NCBI GenBank assembly: GCA_021432655.1
Contig: MU271270.1
Span: 62,001 to 112,377 of the forward strand
Reading direction: 5' to 3'
Length of the DNA stretch: 50,377 bases
Source of the DNA: Atractiella rhizophila
Lineage: Eukaryota
The notes beneath the pieces are model-generated. The model was not told the origin of the DNA. It saw nothing but the letters and a program-made list of their open reading frames with translations, and searched no databases. Positions within the stretch are counted from its first letter, which is position 1, and each line of letters opens with the position of its first letter. This document shows positions 2,950 through 47,653 of the stretch, piece by piece. The translations under genes were made by a program, and so were the position numbers.

Positions 2950-4569
2950 TTATTCGAATGGCCAACCAGTAGGTACACCTTTTGGAAGTACCGCCATTAC
3001 CTTGTATTGGTTACCCATTCCAGCTTCATCGACTAACCTCTGAGCTGCTGAAACAATATCATCTCTCCGAGCTGAATTTCGAGGGTCGTTCGCCAACCGG
3101 GCTAACCTCAGCGGCAGCCCTAGAGAGTTCAGAAATTGTGCCTGAGTGAGAGGTCCATGAGATGTTGCTAGATAACATCTTCTAAGTATGCGACGTGTCT
3201 CTGGGGAAGAATATATATACCTTGCTCATTAAATGATTGTGAAATCGCCTGAAAGTCCACGTTTGAAGTGAGATCTATGAGACCAGGTTCGCGAAGTGGG
3301 GAGACAATCTCGTGTTTTCTAAAAGCCTGAGCCTTACATCAACTTCTCGCTTGGTTCAGCGCTTCGAAACGCGAACCCTGAAACTGTCTCCAAAGCTCCT
3401 AAAATCCCCATAGTCCGCTATGAATCCAACTCCCTTTGCGGGCTTTGCTCCGTCGCCACCGATTAGCTCCCCTATTTTCATCGCAACTGTCCAACTCAGT
3501 GGCGAAACTTCGATACGTTGCGTCGGAGACAGGTTGGTAAACATGGAGGGACGAAGGGATGGGTAAAGACTTGATGCGGTGGTGGCTCCAGGAGATATAA
3601 CAAACCGAAATGAAGATGGAGAGGATTGGTCGACATCGACGAGAAGTTCGTGAAAATTATCTCCAGAACCTTTCTAATCGCCGTTGAGTTAAAGTCGCAC
3701 GTCTACAACTCGATAGATGCCTACTTGGAAAATATGGATGGGTAATGCGTCGAAGAACTCATGAGCAATGAGAAAAGTGAATTCATTATCTTCGGCTGGC
3801 CAAGGAGTAGTCACAACGGTTCTTATGTAGAAGAACAACTCACACGAAGGCACGTCTTCGATTTTGTCGTACCAAAATAGCTCTCCCTTAAACTCCTTTT
3901 GGATCGTAATTTTTTGCTCCTTCTTCAGTTCCTCTGAAGATTCCACGAGTTGTACCTTCAGGGGTGCCAGACCAGGAACTTTGCCAGCGAAAAAGTTGAA
4001 AGTCTATCCCTAGTCCGTGTGAGCCGGTAGAAGAAAAGGGATAAAGAACTAGACCCGAATTATATCACTAGTGAGAGTACCTCTCCCTGGCCCGAGCTCA
4101 ACCAGTCTAGTTTTCAAGGTTTTGGTACTCGATGGAACCTGCAGCGAATACTGAGTTATGAACCACGCTGCTACAAGCTGTCAGAAGAAATGTGAGCAAC
4201 TACTGAAGTAAGGTAACAAATATGCACCTCTCCAAAGACCTGAGATATCTCAGGACTGGTGATGAAATCACCTTTCTTGCCAAAGATGGCTGCATGATCT
4301 CGTCGAGCGTAGTAACCGTGCTGAGGATGGGTCAAACACAAGTTCATGTATGTTGGAACTGGGATCGGTCCGTGAGCCTATAAATCATCATGAGAGAGGA
4401 TGGAGCCACAAAAAACCATCCTCACCTTGATCAGAGAAGAAATTATGGGGAATAATGGATTGGTTTCTGTCTGAGCGGTAAATCGACGTCGCCAGAAAGA
4501 CGGCTGCGATTGGGCACATGATGACTTTATAAGACAATTTCTGGTCAAATTAGCAGCATTTCTCTTCAT
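2950..4569 (-). CDS. NDUFAF7: NDUFAF7/MidA-family SAM-dependent arginine methyltransferase (complex I assembly)
   Basis: Spliced exons give GDFITSPEISQVFGE, LVELGPGRGTL, IAHEFFDALPIH, ADYG, DLTSNVDF and MGNQYKVMAV, all typical of the family. Arg/Ser-rich N-terminus resembles a mitochondrial presequence. Confidence 0.9.
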
Positions 4570-4661
4570 TTTCAGAACCAAACGGAGGAGAGCTGAAAGT
4601 AACTCGTTAACTGGTGGAATGAGGTGACGCGCTGTTGGTGCGTTGGCCAGAAACTTAGACT

Positions 4662-4670
4662 GTCACGTGA
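4662..4670. promoter_or_regulatory. GTCACGTGA E-box (Cbf1-type bHLH site) in a 127-bp divergent promoter
   Basis: Lies between the ATG at 4569 (-) and the ATG at 4697 (+). Confidence 0.5.
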
Positions 4671-4696
4671 GGTGGAAGTGAAAAGCCACACGACGA

Positions 4697-5691
4697 ATGA
4701 GTACCAGCAGCGTCAAAGATGAAGCCACGGAGAAGCCCTTCAACGCCAAAAAGACGGTGGCCATCGTCTTGTTCTCCTTCGGGTTCTCTATGGTGGTGAC
4801 GGGACTGACAGGAAAGCGTTTAATGACGAGGGTAATGGGCAACACGGCTAAGGGGGACACTGTAGCTCAGACTGGCTTTGTGGGTACTTCGAGCGCTTTT
4901 TCAGAGGGGTTCAAGGGAGGTCGAGCACCAAAAAAAGTCCTCAAGAGCTGGTACAAGCAGTTTCAAGCCATCCAATCGGGAAGCGAACCCAAGATTGGCG
5001 GTCTCAGAACTGACCTTGGTCGCGCGTTTTTTGACAACCGAAGATTGAAGGAAGAGGCTCTGCTTGAATTCCGCAAACATCATTTGCCGAACGACGCCAA
5101 GGGAAAGCAGAAGGAAGAGGATACGTCGTTGAGTTCAGACTTCTTGTCAGATCTGGGGCTTTCTGAGCCGACAAAGCGGACGTCTGCTGAGGAGGAAGAC
5201 GATTTCAACGGTGCTACATACGCCCTGAGAGCTTTTGCCATTGCTACCGCCATTGTTGCAGTTGTGGCTGGAACAGGCTACACCTACCTTTTACATAAAC
5301 TAGATGTTTGGGATGTGAGCGCTTTCATTTAGCTTCAAAACACGGCTCAGACGTGTTATAGATGGAATCCCTCTCTTTATACCTCTCCGAAGAATTTTCT
5401 CCCGGCTTCTCCGTCAAAGTGCGAGCTCTTACAAACCAGCTTATACCTTCTCGACTTCGCACCAGCTCTCCTTCCGAACTCGCTGCACAGGTTGCAGACG
5501 AAGAAGCATTTCACCGGTTCTTGGAAAAGGAGGGCGAATCGGGGTTCTCGCAGTGGATCAAAGACTTGGACGAAGCTGGCGAAGAGCATCGAAATGAAAG
5601 AGCGGAACGATGGAAAGTCTTGAAGGTGGAACGTGACAGAAGGGTAAGAGCTCGGGCAGATCGAGAACGGCAAAAACACCTGGGTCTGTAG
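4697..5691 (+). CDS. Two-TM membrane protein, possibly AIM11/TMEM242-like (mitochondrial)
   Basis: ORFs 4697-5332 and 5362-5691 joined by intron 5315-5361 (GTGAGC..ATAG). Hydrophobic VAIVLFSFGFSMVV and YALRAFAIATAIVAVVAG segments; family call tentative. Confidence 0.6.
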
Positions 5692-5835
5692 TCTTCGTTG
5701 CGTGTCTTGCTTTGCACATCATGGTGTCTGTTTACATTTCTGCCCTATGTGGCTGAACTGAGGGTATCAAATTATGTCTAGCGCGTAATCGTCTAGATTA
5801 TAGCCGCCTAAATCGGTTCAAAGGTTGATCTGCAA

Positions 5836-6160
5836 TTAAGACGGTGGTTTTTGCAGGCAGTCAACTTGGTCTAACACTTTTCGTCAGCAAAAGCTATGTC
5901 CCTGTGGGCTTGATCTCACGGAGATTCCTCAGGTGCTCCGTGAAGAAGTTGTGTTTACCTTCAGAGCTCCAATTAGGGTTTCGTTCTCTGAGCTTGTGAG
6001 ATGGCTCACAATATGCACAGTAATATTTGTACTCATTAGACTGTTGGTTGTTCACTGAATCGTCTTTACTTCGACTGATTTCTCATCTCAGTTTAATATA
6101 AACAAGAAGGAGGATAAGCGATGCATACCTCACGAATTTGACGCAAGTCGACCAGAACAT
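5836..6160 (-). CDS. 73-aa stand-alone BED-type zinc-finger microprotein (not in ORF track)
   Basis: Exons 6160-6129, 6074-5920, 5870-5836; introns GTATGC..ATCAG (54 nt) and GTGAGA..GCTGAC..TTAG (49 nt). Protein MFWSTCVKFVSRSKDDSVNNQQSNEYKYYCAYCEPSHKLRERNPNWSSEGKHNFFTEHLRNLHQVDCLQKPPS (C-x2-C-x24-H-x4-H). Confidence 0.7.
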
Positions 6161-6454
6161 GTTGGTGAGTGAGTTGAGAATTCGCTATTTACTGTCTTTC
6201 CGCTTCAGTTTACGTCCAGTTCGGAGAGAAAGGAGATGGTCTTCTCACCTTTTAAAGATGTGGCGATATGGGCACGCCGAGCAACGCGATTGTTTGTGGC
6301 GATCGATCTTATCACAACCTGGTTGAAAATGGAGGAATAACGATTGGCTTTTGCTTTCGGACGCTCGAAGCAAACTCGAAACGTCTGTTTTGTGCTTTGA
6401 TGACGCTGCTGAAAATGAGACACGTTGATCCTCTATCACTCCGACGTCGGTTGT

Positions 6455-6697
6455 GTTTTATATATACGGCCGCCTGCGGTAGTGCTGGGAGCCGAAAAGA
6501 AATCCTGGTGACTCGCGCTTATTTCCCGGCACGTCCCGTACGATCCTCGCTTTACAGCATTGTTTTTGGTGAGATCAGCAACTACTGTTTGTTCAGGCTG
6601 GCTCAGGTGACCAATTGCGTTTGCGGGGGAAGGAGGGAGCAGAGCAGAGGGAGAGAAGGAAGAGGGATTACGTAGACGGATACTATTTTTACACGTG
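6455..6697 (-). promoter_or_regulatory. Putative promoter of the zinc-finger microprotein gene
   Basis: TATATATAAA on the minus strand at ~6457-6466, a pyrimidine tract at ~6625-6666, and CACGTG at 6692-6697. Confidence 0.45.
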
Positions 6698-7791
6698 ACT
6701 ATACTTTGGGCGTCAACTTCGTCTCCTTCTCCTTTCGAAATTCAAAATTCACACGTCATTTTGAGGCTGAGTTCCCTTAATCATCTAAAATCTATGTAGC
6801 GAGTCTAATATGGCGGTTCGTCGAAACGCTCATTAGGGCCGATGTGGACACTCCTTCTATAAAGATGTCAACATAAGCATCAGAAGATATACCACGCACC
6901 ATGTGGACATCTCTCAAATATTTTTCGTTCCATTCTCTTTTCTTCTTCAGCATTTACAACCACGATGACACGACGACTCACGCGCCACAATAGCTACACT
7001 GCTCAACCACTTCAGCTTACTCCTTCTGAGTGTACAGAGATTACACTCACTCGCCAGGCTCCTTCTGGCGCCTCTGAGTGAAACATTTGAGCGGATCTCA
7101 ATCTTAGGACTCGCGAACTTACTCAGCTCAGAGGCACAGCTGCTTATCCTGATTAGAGGTCATCAGTTAGTGAGATCAAAGCACGCACTTGATATGAGAG
7201 TGTCTACGGAAGAACAGATTGAAATGAGCCATTAAGTGTGAAGGATGTTGGAGATTACCATACGAAGCTATTCTAGAAGTTAAGAAATGTAACGACCAAG
7301 GGGCGAAGGTTCTTATCCTGGGCGACTCCCTCTGGCCAAGCCGGGAAGGCAAGGCTCGTCGGAACGCGTGCCAAAGTATATTTCAAGCTGCTCTACAAAG
7401 CCGAGCAAGATGAGTGCAAGATGTCCATCGATCAACAATTGATTCAGTTCAATTTCTAGGTCTCGAGTTGAGTTCGCTGCTATGCAGGCAGATAAGCTGC
7501 TCCACGTTCCTAGATAGGCGGTAAAAGCAGGGTAAATAGAAGGGTTGAGATTTTGAAAAAGGCGCCATTTGTTTGCACTCATCAGCAGTGTTGTAGCGGA
7601 ATGAAGCCCAGCCCGCAACTCAAGAACTTTGGCTCGCATTGAGGAAGGAACAAGATCAATAATTATAGCATGCTGAACTAACGTTGAACGTTGAACGTTG
7701 GACAGTAGAACGTGTTATGAAGCAGTTGAACTGGAGAGATGAAAGTGTGACGAAACCGGCGATGAGAGGTACAACAACAACCTGACCCAGC

Positions 7792-8402
7792 CTACAAATA
7801 CATCCACGGGTTGATCTCCAGAAAAGCAGTTCGTTTCGCAGGATTGAACAAGTCCGACCCTGTGCAACGCTCTGCATTCTTGATGTGCTCCTATTCGATG
7901 CTTAGGACGACCAATGTTTAAGGGCGTACACGACTTACAAAGGCGTTTACCTCCTTGCCTTCTGGAACCGCAGGAATCTTGATTACTGTTGGTACTCCTT
8001 TGACGAAGAACGGCCCTTGCCGAAAGTAATTTGTAGGGTTCTTCCACCTGGCCGCGGCGAGACATCAATACGAGCACGAAATGGGCGGCGTTAGGATGAG
8101 CAACGCACTCTGATTTATGCCCAACCCGAATGATCTTCCAGTCCTCTCCCTCTTCCGCCTCCTCTCCTTTCTGCACCTCGGTCTTTAGAAAGTCTGAAAT
8201 CCTGGAACAGAATGGGCACCTGTCATGCTGTCAACACCTATCACTAGGCAGAAGGAGCGTCATGCCATTCGTAACCGTCGTCTTCAAGTGAGGAATAGAA
8301 GATCAGGATCTTCCGCTTCCCATCCTTGGGTACCAATTCCTCGGCTGTATAATGCTTCTCTTTCAGAGGGAGAGGAAAGTCTGTCGTGAGTTGGAATTCC
8401 AT
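7792..8402 (-). CDS. TXNDC17/TRP14 (DUF953)-like thioredoxin, paralog A (WCPFC)
   Basis: MEFQLTTDFPLPLKEKHY..KILIFYSS..YEW|CPFC..WKIIRVGHKSE|WKNPTNYFRQGPFFVKGVPT..|EHIKNAERC..MYL*. Requires a 46-nt GC-AG intron at 8265-8220; alternative ATG at 8414. Confidence 0.75.
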
Positions 8403-9070
8403 TGTGGAAGCCATTAGGGATATAGGGCAAACAAAGATCGAGACAGCGAGCTTGGTGAAGTACAAACAAGGATTGTGCCACCATCCTATTCTTGTGCTGC
8501 CGTGGCTTTTATGGAGACTGACAAGCCCGCATGACAGCGGAATTTCAATCGGCCGGGCACGACAACCGATGCTTTGCTTTACTAGCAACGATTTCACGAC
8601 TCATGACGTGACTACTCTGGCTTTTTGTCTGGATGAATGTATGCCCTACGTAGCGAGGAGCCGCTGTCGAGGTTCTTCCAGATAGGATATAAAGCTCAAC
8701 GGCAGCAGCAGCTGGCATAAACGCCGTTGTCCCAACCGTCTAACGGAAACCGCGACGACAGGAGCCCTATCCAAATATATTGTTGGGTTCTGAGCATTCT
8801 GTACTGTGTACTTGGCATTGCCCCCAAACATCCATGAAGATAAAGGAGATTTGCCGGTCATTGGATCCAACAGGTGTACCCTGCTGCTAACAACATATTG
8901 GACGTCCGAAAGACATCAGCTCCCGCGGGAGAATCGTTCCGGCGAAATACAGGATGCATGACTAATAAAGGAATAGGGCTTGGATCGAGATTGATGAGGT
9001 GTAGACACTCGTGAGGGACTCCCTTGAAGGAATACTGGCCAAGATGCTGGTGGGAGTTGAAGTAATGTTA

Positions 9071-9634
9071 TTACACTGTGTTGGCAAGAAAAGCCTTGAA
9101 CACCTCAGGATCGTGAATACCATCCTCTTCCGTTCTTGGGGCTGTCGTGAGCACCTCCTAAACCGCAGTGAAACATCAAGGGCACGCCTACACACAGGTG
9201 GGAAAGCGCACCACAGGATCATAATCTGTTCCTTCCTCGAATGCTGGAACTATGAGCAAAAAAGGGACACTGGGGACACTGAATGGTGCCTTGCGGTAAT
9301 AGTTCGACTTGTCCTTCCACCTAACCCCAAAAAGGAGAAATTCAGCCTGAGCCTCTTGCTTCTGACGCGCCAGTAGGAAAATGTTATCATGTCGGATACT
9401 CACTCTCCCTTATGTCCAACACGTATGATTTTCCATCCTTCCCCTTCTTCTCCCTCCTCACCATGCTGCACTTCTCGCTTCACTATGCCTTCCACTCTCA
9501 CACAATCTGGGCACCACATCTTTCCATTCTCTTCTATGGACGCAAAGAAAATGAGAACTTTGGATTTTCCCATTTGCTTGCACCAGAGAGGAAGGAGAAA
9601 AGTGTTTCGTAGGGGGGTACGGCGGGGAGAGCAT
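9071..9634 (-). CDS. TXNDC17/TRP14 (DUF953)-like thioredoxin, paralog B (WCPDC), with an apparent 1-nt frameshift near the N-terminus
   Basis: KVLIFFAS..KMWCPDCVRVE..WKIIRVGHKGE|WKDKSNYYRKAPFSVPSVP..|EVLTTAPR..NTV*. The N-terminus MLSPPYPPTKHFSPSSLVQANGK is in another frame (extra base in the run at 9565-9568). Confidence 0.75.
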
Positions 9635-10096
9635 TTCAATTCTAGTCTGTTTCGAATTGGAGCCTGAGAGGACAGGTGCGGGTGAAAGGGTTATTATAGC
9701 GTTAGTGAAATTGGATTATCGTCCTGCAGCATGCACTGTCGATACTACCGATCAAAGCGCCTCATGACATGATGAGACCATCGAAAGGAAATGAGCGCAC
9801 CGAAAAGACGTCCGACTCACAACATGCAAGCACCAACAAGAAAACGTTGCCAAAATGTCACAGCCCATGTTTTCCAGCCAACCCACGTGTCCGTCGCGCT
9901 CTTGTCCTTTCGTCCACTACCTTTGGTTCCTTCATTGTTTTGTACTAGACTGCAGGAGTGAATTCAGTACGTGAATCCGACCAGTGTGGCACGTGACTTT
10001 CGCTCAAAGAAGGACATTCCCGGTGTTACAATCAATGATCACGAAAGCTTGCTCAACATTATCCATATTATAGTAATCGCTACAATAGGGGCACAC

Positions 10097-45732: not shown

Positions 45733-47653
45733 ATGGCTGAAAAGCTAGAAAGACTCTTTTGTTGCGACTCGCAGAACTGCAGGCAAGACACTCGTGTGGA
45801 TGTTCTAGAGTTCTGCGATGGTAAAAGCTGCATGGGTGAAGATAAAAACGGGTGTTCGGAGTGTGACGATGATGGACAAAAAGGAGTTGGGGGGAGCGGA
45901 TTGGGCAGAGGCAATCCGGAAAACGATAGCGAAAAGGTCATGAGGCAGTTTGTGAGATCTTATCTGCCATTTTACAAGAAAAGCTAATGTTCATGAGTTA
46001 GCTCGAAATCTGTGGGATCTGTAACATCCCCTACGATCCAGCGGCGACCCATTCTCACGAAAACCCTCCATTTCTTCCGCAGAAGCATTGGGATAACCAG
46101 ACTTCGATCACACACTCTCCCATCCCTGTACATGCCTTGCATGGTTCACCAGCGAATAAAGATCAGTATCATTTCGAAGGACAAGGATCAGGTCATGGAC
46201 ATGGACATGATGGGACATTCGGCTGCCATTGGGGGTTCTGCAATCGCCAATTCACCACAATGAATGATTTAGCCTCCCACGTTAATCTCGAGCATCTACA
46301 ACCTGCTCCTGCTCGTATCCCACCCCTCCCACTCAAAACCGAAGACCTGATTCAATTGCCGTCAAGCCAGCATCTAGAGCAACAAAATCAGCAGGATGCT
46401 GTAACGGAGACGAGTCGTGATGACCTTTATTGTCTATGGGATGACTGCCATCGGTTACCTGAAGATCTCTTCGAGATTGACCATACTATGTCAGGACAGG
46501 AGCAATCATTGACTGAAAAACCTAAATCTTTGCTTCTTCAGCATCTCGTTCAGGATCACTTGCAAATGGTCGGTATCCTTCAGCAACATTACCATTCCCA
46601 CAAAATCATCTCTGACTTTATGTGGGATAGGACCCGATCGACCTTCTACAATTTGTCTCAAACCCTTCATTCAGCCTACCAACGGAGCCGCAGATAGGCA
46701 TTTCCCCGGATTCCACCACGAATCAATCCAGCGTCCCTCTGCCTCCATCTGCCTCCTCTTTCTCCCCTCCTCCTGTGCCATTTCCGTCTACCCAACCTCA
46801 TCTCTATCCGACATCTACTTCTACTTTGGCATCAACGTCCAAATCGAACGGAAATAGCTCCTCAGATTTGGCTGCCTACCTGCGAGTTCCAGGGCGCGCA
46901 CGTCGTTCCGTCGCCAATTCAAACTCCGGCATCGATGGTGCGCTCATCTGCAAATGGCCAGCTTGTGGATTGGAGTTTGCAACGACAGCATTGTTGATGG
47001 AGCATTTGGGGAAAGATCATATCGGAAGTGGGAAGAAGGAGTATGTCTGTTTGTGGGAGGGGTGCGAACGAGATGAGATTGGAAGAGTTTTCAAGCAGCG
47101 ACAGAAGATCATGCGACATTTGCAGAGCCATACCGGAGATAGACCTTTTGTGTGTCCTTTTCGCTTCTATTTACCTCAATTCTCATTTTTCTGATCAGGT
47201 TTGTGATGAATGTGGAAAAGCTTTCACTGAAGCTACGACATTGCAACAAGTACGAGCCCTCCGTGGTTTGTTGTAGACGTTTGCATGCTGACGAATCCAT
47301 TATAACAGCACAAGCGGACGCACACTAAAGAGAAGCCTTTCGTCTGCACTCATCCAGATTGTGGCAAATCCTTCGCTCTAGCTTCAGCCCTCACGATCCA
47401 CATGCGCACCCATACAGGCGACAAACCATTCACCTGCCCTCAATGCGATACCTCTTTTGCTGAATCCTCTAACCTCTCGAAACACATGAAGATTCATCGG
47501 ACGGAGAAAGAGTACGTTTGTCCATTTCCGAACTGTCAGAAGAAATTTGGCAGATCGGACCAGTTGGCGAGGCATAAGAGGACACATTTAAAATCGGAGT
47601 CGCGAGCGGCAGAGAGTGAAGGAGCATTGGCTGCGACGCTACCGCAGGTGTAG
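45733..47653 (+). CDS. Multi-C2H2 zinc-finger transcription factor, Zap1/ZafA-like (zinc-responsive)
   Basis: Cys/His-rich N-terminus; tandem CWCH2-type fingers (CHWGFC, CLWDDC, CKWPAC, CLWEGC..FKQRQKIMRHLQSHTGDRPF) followed by linked C2H2 fingers. Introns include ~45952-46001 and 46569-46630. Confidence 0.8.

Follow-up and report, generated by a model that had tools for sequence, protein, structure and literature searches.

An apparently intergenic stretch on the minus strand (positions 5836-6467) of the 50,377-nucleotide segment of the Atractiella rhizophila genome considered here, referred to below as the window, raises the question of whether it holds a gene and, if so, what kind of protein this gene would specify. 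The initial annotation, made from the sequence alone, had proposed three coding exons for a stand-alone BED-type zinc finger of 73 residues, possibly a domesticated transposase DNA-binding domain. Our analysis reveals that the stretch is a spliced, transcribed and apparently unannotated micro-gene, putatively protein-coding. The observation behind the proposal was largely right, while its protein model and the BED or transposase reading are unsupported. The explanation that we favor is that the locus probably holds a pair of micro-genes specifying single-finger C-x2-C-x12-H-x3-C peptides of 56 and 53 residues, the downstream one transcribed into an mRNA with four introns, and a diverged paralogue lying upstream of it.

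The RNA evidence consists of contigs assembled from four public runs (X20, X1, X2 and X7), which were compared with the window over positions 3000-9000. X20 is like a same-species transcriptome, with all five compared contigs at least 99% identical to the window, while X1 and X2 come from one study of one organism that is about 1.5% different from the window, and X7 is a soil metatranscriptome. Introns of neighboring genes were likewise removed in X20 and in other runs, and these runs are therefore RNA. It should be noted that contigs report presence and joints, while expression levels, isoform ratios, minor isoforms, transcript ends and strand lie outside their reach, and that every statement on joints and contigs made below holds among the joints and contig pieces listed for these runs.

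Four joints in the downstream gene, namely 5870/5920, 5958/6010, 6074/6129 and 6191/6249, were found together on a single contig in each of X20, X1 and X2 (three of the four runs), with contig depths at the gene of 143.4, 9.45 and 5.27, respectively. The second of these was recorded as 5956/6008 and was shifted by +2, giving CT..AC ends, i.e. GT..AG on the minus strand, and GT..AG ends on that strand are thus common to all four joints. X7 presented only a contig at 6285-6470 and none over either of the two coding sequences among the pieces listed, and is neutral for either view of the products discussed below. One intron lies in the 5'-UTR and three interrupt the coding sequence (Table 1), with sizes of 57, 54, 51 and 49 nt that are inside the 43-61 nt span of the other joints listed for positions 3000-9000. 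The coding exons of the RNA-supported model (6160-6129, 6074-6010, 5958-5920 and 5870-5836) amount to 56 codons.

Table 1 Features of the downstream micro-gene and of its upstream paralogue, in window positions.
Feature	Positions	Strand	Basis and remarks
TATA-like box TATATATAAAA	6456..6466 (sequence 6466-6456)	-	Seen in sequence; crossed by X20, X1 and X7 contigs
5'-UTR exon, downstream gene	6249..6430	-	6430 is a guess from the TATA position; X20 covers 6249-6856, X7 covers 6285-6470
5'-UTR intron, 57 nt, GTGAGA..CAG	6192..6248	-	Joint 6191/6249 in X20, X1, X2; splice sites checked
Exon with 5'-UTR end (6191-6161) and first 32 coding nt; ATG 6160-6158	6129..6191	-	Sequence and RNA joints
Coding intron 1, 54 nt, GTATGC..CAG	6075..6128	-	Joint 6074/6129 in X20, X1, X2; predicted in the initial annotation
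Coding exon 2, 65 nt; 3' end is base 1 of the codon for the second Cys of the CxxC knuckle	6010..6074	-	RNA joints and model
Coding intron 2, 51 nt, in frame, stop-free, GTGAGC..AAG	5959..6009	-	Joint recorded as 5956/6008 in X20, X1, X2; read earlier as 17 codons
Coding exon 3, 39 nt; supplies the remaining bases of the Cys codon (T|GT), holds most of the putative finger helix	5920..5958	-	RNA joints and model
Coding intron 3, 49 nt, GTGAGA..TAG, CTGAC branch-like motif	5871..5919	-	Joint 5870/5920 in X20, X1, X2; predicted in the initial annotation
Last exon: CDS 5870-5836 (stop TAA 5838-5836) and 3'-UTR	5643..5870	-	X1 contig to 5643, X2 contig to 5576
Upstream paralogue, 53 aa, six CDS exons	7232-7189, 7139-7123, 7073-7051, 6998-6982, 6936-6900, 6856-6833	-	X20/X1 joints and model

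Much of the gene structure proposed earlier is borne out by these contigs. Both predicted coding introns were found joined in X20, X1 and X2 (6129/6074 and 5920/5870 in the direction of transcription), and the His codon C|AC expected from the second predicted splice is present in the sequence, with its joint in the RNA. A 5'-UTR intron starting at 6248 had been offered with two possible acceptors; it is used, and the same three runs place its acceptor at 6192, not 6185. A TATA placed at about 6460 is likewise present. The spliced leader contains the in-frame stop that had been claimed upstream of the start codon, a TAG eight codons before ATG 6160, by which an N-terminally longer protein is excluded. 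As for the exon model itself, its ATG, its two coding introns and its stop stand, while its three coding exons have to give way to four, since there is an extra intron at 5959-6009. Two sequence differences were seen around the start of the gene: the base directly before the start codon (position 6161, coding strand) reads G>A in X1 and X2, and X20 has one base missing within the TATA run at 6460.

We also considered whether this gene is represented among annotated proteins. A hypothetical protein of Atractiella rhizophila (Basidiomycota, Pucciniomycotina) in NCBI matches the first exon of the convergent gene on the plus strand (4697-5314) at 100% identity, which shows that the collection includes the proteins annotated for this genome. 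In the same collection, no protein of 32-104 aa has three 5-residue words in common with the exon-2 translation of the micro-gene, and phmmer with this translation scored no Atractiella protein of any length. That the downstream micro-gene is unannotated in that protein collection is supported, and the earlier claim of an unannotated, spliced and transcribed micro-gene with a Cys/His zinc-finger signature agrees with both its absence there and its RNA contigs in three of the four runs. The convergent gene consists of exon 4697-5314, intron 5315-5361 and exon 5362-5691, for which the NCBI model has 339 aa, as compared to 315 aa from the two exons read here; its RNA and that of the downstream micro-gene overlap at their 3' ends, and X20 contig 13 (4695-5870 on, 2036 nt) merges both.

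The additional intron changes the predicted protein in spacing but not in frame. Intron 5959-6009 had been taken as coding because it is in frame and stop-free; with its removal, 17 residues are lost, and the product shortens from 73 to 56 aa with the frame kept. The RNA-supported product presents C30-x2-C33-x12-H46-x3-C50, with a Phe four residues past the second Cys. This C-x2-C-x12-H-x3-C arrangement arises only after the RNA-supported splicing, which restores the split Cys codon T|GT and sets the spacing from the Cys pair to HLRNLH at 7 residues, as compared to 24 in the unspliced form. The sole recognizable module of the downstream protein is a putative single zinc finger of the classical type, with Cys as the last ligand.

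A second gene of this kind lies upstream on the same strand (6833-7232), at a gap of about 670 nt. In the spliced RNA, its ORF runs from an ATG at 7232 to a stop at 6835-6833. Three of its six coding exons are merely 17-23 nt long, and all five introns are GT..AG introns of 43-52 nt. The joints 6856/6900 and 6936/7051 (the latter with 17 letters between) were found in X20 and X1, and the joint 7073/7189 (again with 17 letters between) in X1, with a loose end in X20; both 17-letter pieces were located in the window, as micro-exons 6982-6998 and 7123-7139. In X20, contig coverage stops at about 7228 and so misses the upstream ATG by four bases. The upstream protein reads C29-x2-C32-x12-H45-x3-C49, with a Trp four residues past the second Cys.

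A gapless alignment of the two proteins extends over 46 residues and has a BLOSUM62 score of 58, which none of 5000 shuffles reached (23.7 +/- 4.9), and xLR[DN][VL]Hxx[ED]C at the finger end is common to both. From this likeness, the two micro-genes appear to be diverged paralogues. In both proteins, the ligand spacing fits the C-x2-4-C-x12-H-x3-5-(H/C) of classical C2H2-like and CCHC beta-beta-alpha fingers, an aromatic residue is found at +4 (Phe or Trp) and a Leu at +9, not +10. The textbook finger consensus is C-x2-C-x3-F-x5-L-x2-H. We infer the fold and family of both peptides from ligand spacing alone. Where the downstream protein has the residue that had been proposed as its first His ligand, the upstream protein has a Tyr, and the conserved ligands are therefore Cys, Cys, His46 and Cys50.

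The finger is encoded across three exons in the downstream gene and across four in the upstream gene, and the introns share no position between the two genes, though the positions are close. Phase 1 introns lie in codons 33 and 46 of the downstream gene, and in the upstream gene a phase 2 intron lies two codons past the second Cys and a phase 0 intron one codon past the His. Such differing intron positions would be odd for tandem duplicates and would count against simple tandem duplication; if the two micro-genes are duplicates, they would be old ones. No DNA-level repeat covers the two genes (blastn, 4000-9900 against the window), and they are therefore not a recent duplication. When the two spliced proteins were compared with the window by tblastn, no further paralogue was found in the 50 kb; outside the exons of the two genes themselves, nothing scored below E 0.36 for the downstream protein or E 0.06 for the upstream protein, and these matches were judged to be chance. 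A fusion of both ORFs into a two-finger protein was also considered and is excluded, as the stop of the upstream ORF lies within the uninterrupted exon 6249-6856.

These results need to be weighed against the model of the initial annotation, in which a functional 73-aa form, with 5959-6009 retained, would be a BED-type C-x2-C-x24-H-x4-H finger from the DNA-binding domain of a hAT transposase. In zf-BED domains, a spacer of roughly 16-24 residues separates the Cys pair from the His pair, which has the form H-x3-5-H. Like the zf-BED (PF02892) of hAT transposases, the downstream protein has Cys2/His2-like ligands and a helix with hydrophobic-x2-H-L-x3-H, resembling the BED signature, and retention of the 51-nt intron, which keeps the frame and has no stop, would leave the protein intact. 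Such an intron is, however, expected by chance about 15% of the time (a rough estimate), and it is removed in all three runs with contigs there. The RNA-supported mRNA thus lacks the long spacer, with 7 residues to the first proposed His; the CAYC-x24-HLRNLH arrangement of the 73-aa protein exists only if the intron is retained, and X20, X1 and X2 give C-x2-C-x12-H-x3-C in 56 aa instead. The paralogue, moreover, has Tyr in place of the first BED His, and its corresponding intron carries stops, so that it cannot make the long spacing.

The family searches point in the same direction with one exception, and should be read with the query in mind. Those in Pfam, the PDB, the atlas and the representative library used the unspliced exon-2 translation (P0001, 59 residues, in which the frame reaches a stop at 5896-5894) rather than the spliced 56-aa and 53-aa proteins, and their sensitivity is limited accordingly. 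No Pfam match to zf-BED was obtained with P0001 at E up to 10 or with the 62-aa stop-to-stop frame at E up to 1, nor did any C2H2-clan family match the unspliced translation (E up to 10); neither of the two profile types that had been thought relevant was thus matched by this translation. The exception is the sole Pfam match of the retained-intron translation, zf-C17orf113 (PF25431; E 0.015, residues 12-49), which spans intron-encoded residues and whose marginal 15.6 bits fall far under the gathering score of 29.5 bits; it may be taken as one weak piece leaning to the long-spacer form.

A phmmer search of 1,835,955,588 protein representatives (E<=1e-3) gave three matches, all of them bacterial PD40-repeat (PD40/TolB-like) proteins. 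No transposase, hAT, BED or zinc-finger protein is among these three, and the proposed transposase origin thus gains no hAT relative from the 1.84 billion representatives. The PD40 matches themselves cover query residues 25-46, which are mostly intron-encoded, and were rejected as chance matches summed over repeats. Read as protein, intron 5959-6009 does resemble a PD40/TolB beta-propeller repeat (best E 4.3e-10, summed over seven repeats), and such matches are a warning that repeat proteins can be false positives for short queries. Considering both sides, we regard a functional 73-aa BED form as highly unlikely and retain the 56-aa single-finger peptide as the probable product.

Other searches for relatives gave similar outcomes. 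In the PDB, phmmer with the unspliced translation found only TRAIL chains at E >= 0.73, which were rejected, and the ESM Atlas gave no usable match for the same translation. A pattern scan of metagenome contigs for related loci yielded 310 pattern matches, none of which was confirmed, and a degenerate DNA pattern built from nine coding-exon-3 residues hit 18 metagenome loci, with a Cys pair upstream or H-x3-C downstream in none of the 18, as expected of chance. No relative beyond this locus was thus found across the protein collection, metagenome contigs, representative library and atlas. In the literature, nothing specific was found on small C2HC finger proteins in fungi or on BED/hAT domestication in fungi, and only unrelated work on C17orf113; among the articles listed on the Atractiella rhizophila genome, none refers to this gene in its title or the beginning of its abstract.

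Whether the short ORFs are translated at all is a separate matter. The RNA could be real and the ORFs untranslated, either as a spliced non-coding RNA or as a long 3'-UTR of the upstream gene, with the look of a finger being a coincidence. Such a view is consistent with both ORFs being very short, with the outcome of the homologue searches and with the contigs being continuous from the upstream gene into the downstream gene (7228 to 5643), as one long, heavily spliced transcript is possible. Introns downstream of a stop normally mark an RNA for decay, and those downstream of the upstream-ORF stop, which would normally mark such an RNA in this way, were likewise counted in its favor. However, in composition-preserving shuffles, C-x2-C-x12-H-x3-C appeared in only 57 of 200000 cases for the downstream protein and 116 of 200000 for the upstream protein, and just one stop-free C-x2-C-x12-H-x3-[CH], at an ordinary C2H2 gene near 47435, was found when the whole window was translated in all six frames (100750 residues). 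Two ORFs with the same rare motif and a significant gapless alignment, both seen only after correct splicing, argue against coincidence.

Sequence constraint argues for the same conclusion. Between the window and X1, the minus-strand transcript parts within 5643-7456 show 13 differences (8 substitutions, 5 indels), none of which falls within either coding sequence. About 289-333 coding nt are covered by X1, with no differences, where about 5 would be expected at the non-coding rate; this is a rough estimate, as the extent of some X1 contigs is approximate. The coding pieces of the neighboring plus-strand gene have 11 differences in 664 nt versus X1. It should be considered that the evidence for this conservation comes from the paralogue and from a single close relative or strain (X1/X2). 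In addition, ATG 6160 is preceded by 342 nt of spliced leader (6559 to 6161) free of any ATG, and no Rfam family was found at 5400-7700 (E <= 0.1). When the motif, paralogy, constraint, leader and Rfam results are considered together, translated ORFs would be the best reading, and we consider it unlikely that the RNA is real and its ORFs untranslated.

The contigs also bear on the transcription of the putative peptide genes. Coverage of 6249-6856 is unbroken in X20, and an X1 contig spans 6456-6705. As contigs of X20, X1 and X7 cross the TATA box, some RNA starts upstream of it. This RNA is either a long 3'-UTR of the upstream gene that overlaps the downstream promoter, or a read-through bicistronic RNA, and part of the RNA carrying the downstream ORF may thus be a read-through transcript. 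A single transcription unit spanning both micro-genes, read-through or bicistronic, in place of two independent genes, would be compatible with our preferred explanation, and is a tangible possibility, though one falling somewhat short of probable. The continuity of X20 contig 13 over 6249-6856 speaks for it, together with the X1 (6456-6705) and X7 (6285-6470) contigs that cross the TATA box, as does the 615-nt spliced spacer between the ORFs, which holds merely three ATGs with ORFs of 11, 5 and 2 aa. Nonetheless, contigs from short reads merge overlapping RNAs, as seen for the same X20 contig, which merges the convergent plus-strand gene too, and a strong TATA box is found at the site expected for an independent promoter.

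There is a known system with which this arrangement can be compared. According to one report, read-through polycistronic transcripts involve up to 8% of transcribed genes in Agaricomycetes (Gordon et al. 2015, PMC4503453). In those mushroom-forming fungi, as here, tandem genes on the same strand are joined in RNA, with signs of the downstream gene having its own promoter. In our case, however, the evidence comes from short-read contigs alone, and the organism belongs to Pucciniomycotina, while that report is concerned with Agaricomycetes.

Returning to the preferred pair of single-finger peptides, each would be expected to bind one Zn(II) via Cys, Cys, His and Cys, to fold as a beta-hairpin and a helix, and to act as a small binding module. 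The partner may be a protein, which we tentatively take to be somewhat likelier than sequence-specific DNA binding. This preference, held with low confidence, is because the finger is single and without basic flanks, because Cys takes the place of the last ligand, as it does in CCHC and ubiquitin-binding fingers, and because the hydrophobic core of the helix would be offset by one position relative to DNA-reading fingers.

Comparison with known fingers gives a mixed picture. Both paralogues are like the classical C2H2 finger and its CCHC variants (FOG/U-shaped, protein-binding) in presenting C-x2-C-x12-H-x3-ligand and the aromatic residue at +4. They differ from the classical C2H2 finger in that the last ligand is Cys and that the hydrophobic residue lies one position earlier than in the consensus, and also in that a single finger makes up a stand-alone protein of 53-56 aa, whereas classical fingers come as an array in a large factor. 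The C2HC ubiquitin-binding fingers (UBZ4 of RAD18/WRNIP1, NEMO) and those of the Sgf11/ZC2HC1 type are also single C-x2-C-x11/12-H-x3-C binding modules, a likeness by spacing alone, and their H-x3-C end resembles the H-M-K-E-C of the upstream paralogue; these fingers, however, sit inside larger proteins. From zf-BED the peptides differ in that the long spacer is present only in the unspliced form, in that there is no Pfam match and no hAT relative, and in that the paralogue does not have the first His.

Both proteins begin with a hydrophobic and basic N-terminus, whose first 14-18 positions contain no acidic residue. A bolder reading, which we find improbable, would be that of an unseen, lineage-restricted family of CCHC microproteins of about 55 aa with one finger each, specified by coding exons down to 17 nt and partly by one bicistronic mRNA, and possibly organelle-targeted or acting as zinc- or redox-linked partners of the adjacent TXD17-like thioredoxins.

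The thioredoxin genes in question are found in tandem directly upstream of the micro-genes, on the minus strand, at 7715-8512 and 9400-9690. A Pfam match to TXD17-like_Trx (E 3.8e-7) was obtained at 9400-9690, and the ORF at 7715-8230 has a similar motif by eye, with no Pfam match. Within the thioredoxin-like gene, a joint at 8218-8265 in X20 and X1 skips 46 nt with CC..TG rather than CT..AC ends, which could reflect an intron of non-canonical type or ambiguity in placing the cut. Between this gene and the upstream micro-gene, contigs of X1 (7236-7456) and X2 (7366-7541) cover minus-strand positions 7236-7541, which X20 does not; this region may be a gene of its own, or it may be a UTR, either at the 5' end of the upstream micro-gene or at the 3' end of the thioredoxin-like gene. 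An open frame of 133 aa at 7313-7714 on the minus strand gave a Pfam signal of E 0.27 only, which is meaningless.

Elsewhere in the window, three exact tandem head-to-tail duplications were seen, at 10598-13107/13109-15609 (99.0% identical, 2.5 kb, with an NRDE-2 ORF in each copy), 22484-24181/24183-25873 (95.4%) and 29013-30122/30123-31227 (96.7%), all of which could be real or assembly artefacts. The ordinary C2H2 gene mentioned above is a multi-exon gene at about 46002-47500 on the plus strand; its motif at 47435 is the sole C-x2-C-x12-H-x3-H that the window holds in unspliced form, and its ORF 46002-46697 has a weak zf_ZIC match.

Although the locus has no bearing on any long-standing open question, it illustrates that gene callers can miss tiny, intron-rich genes in an otherwise annotated fungal genome. 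It also demonstrates how an exon model made from sequence only can be nearly right and yet lead to the wrong family, as one missed in-frame intron turned a classical spacing into a BED-like one. If translated, the two peptides would rank with the smallest stand-alone zinc-finger proteins of fungi, and the locus would offer a convenient case for micro-exon splicing and read-through transcription outside Agaricomycetes.
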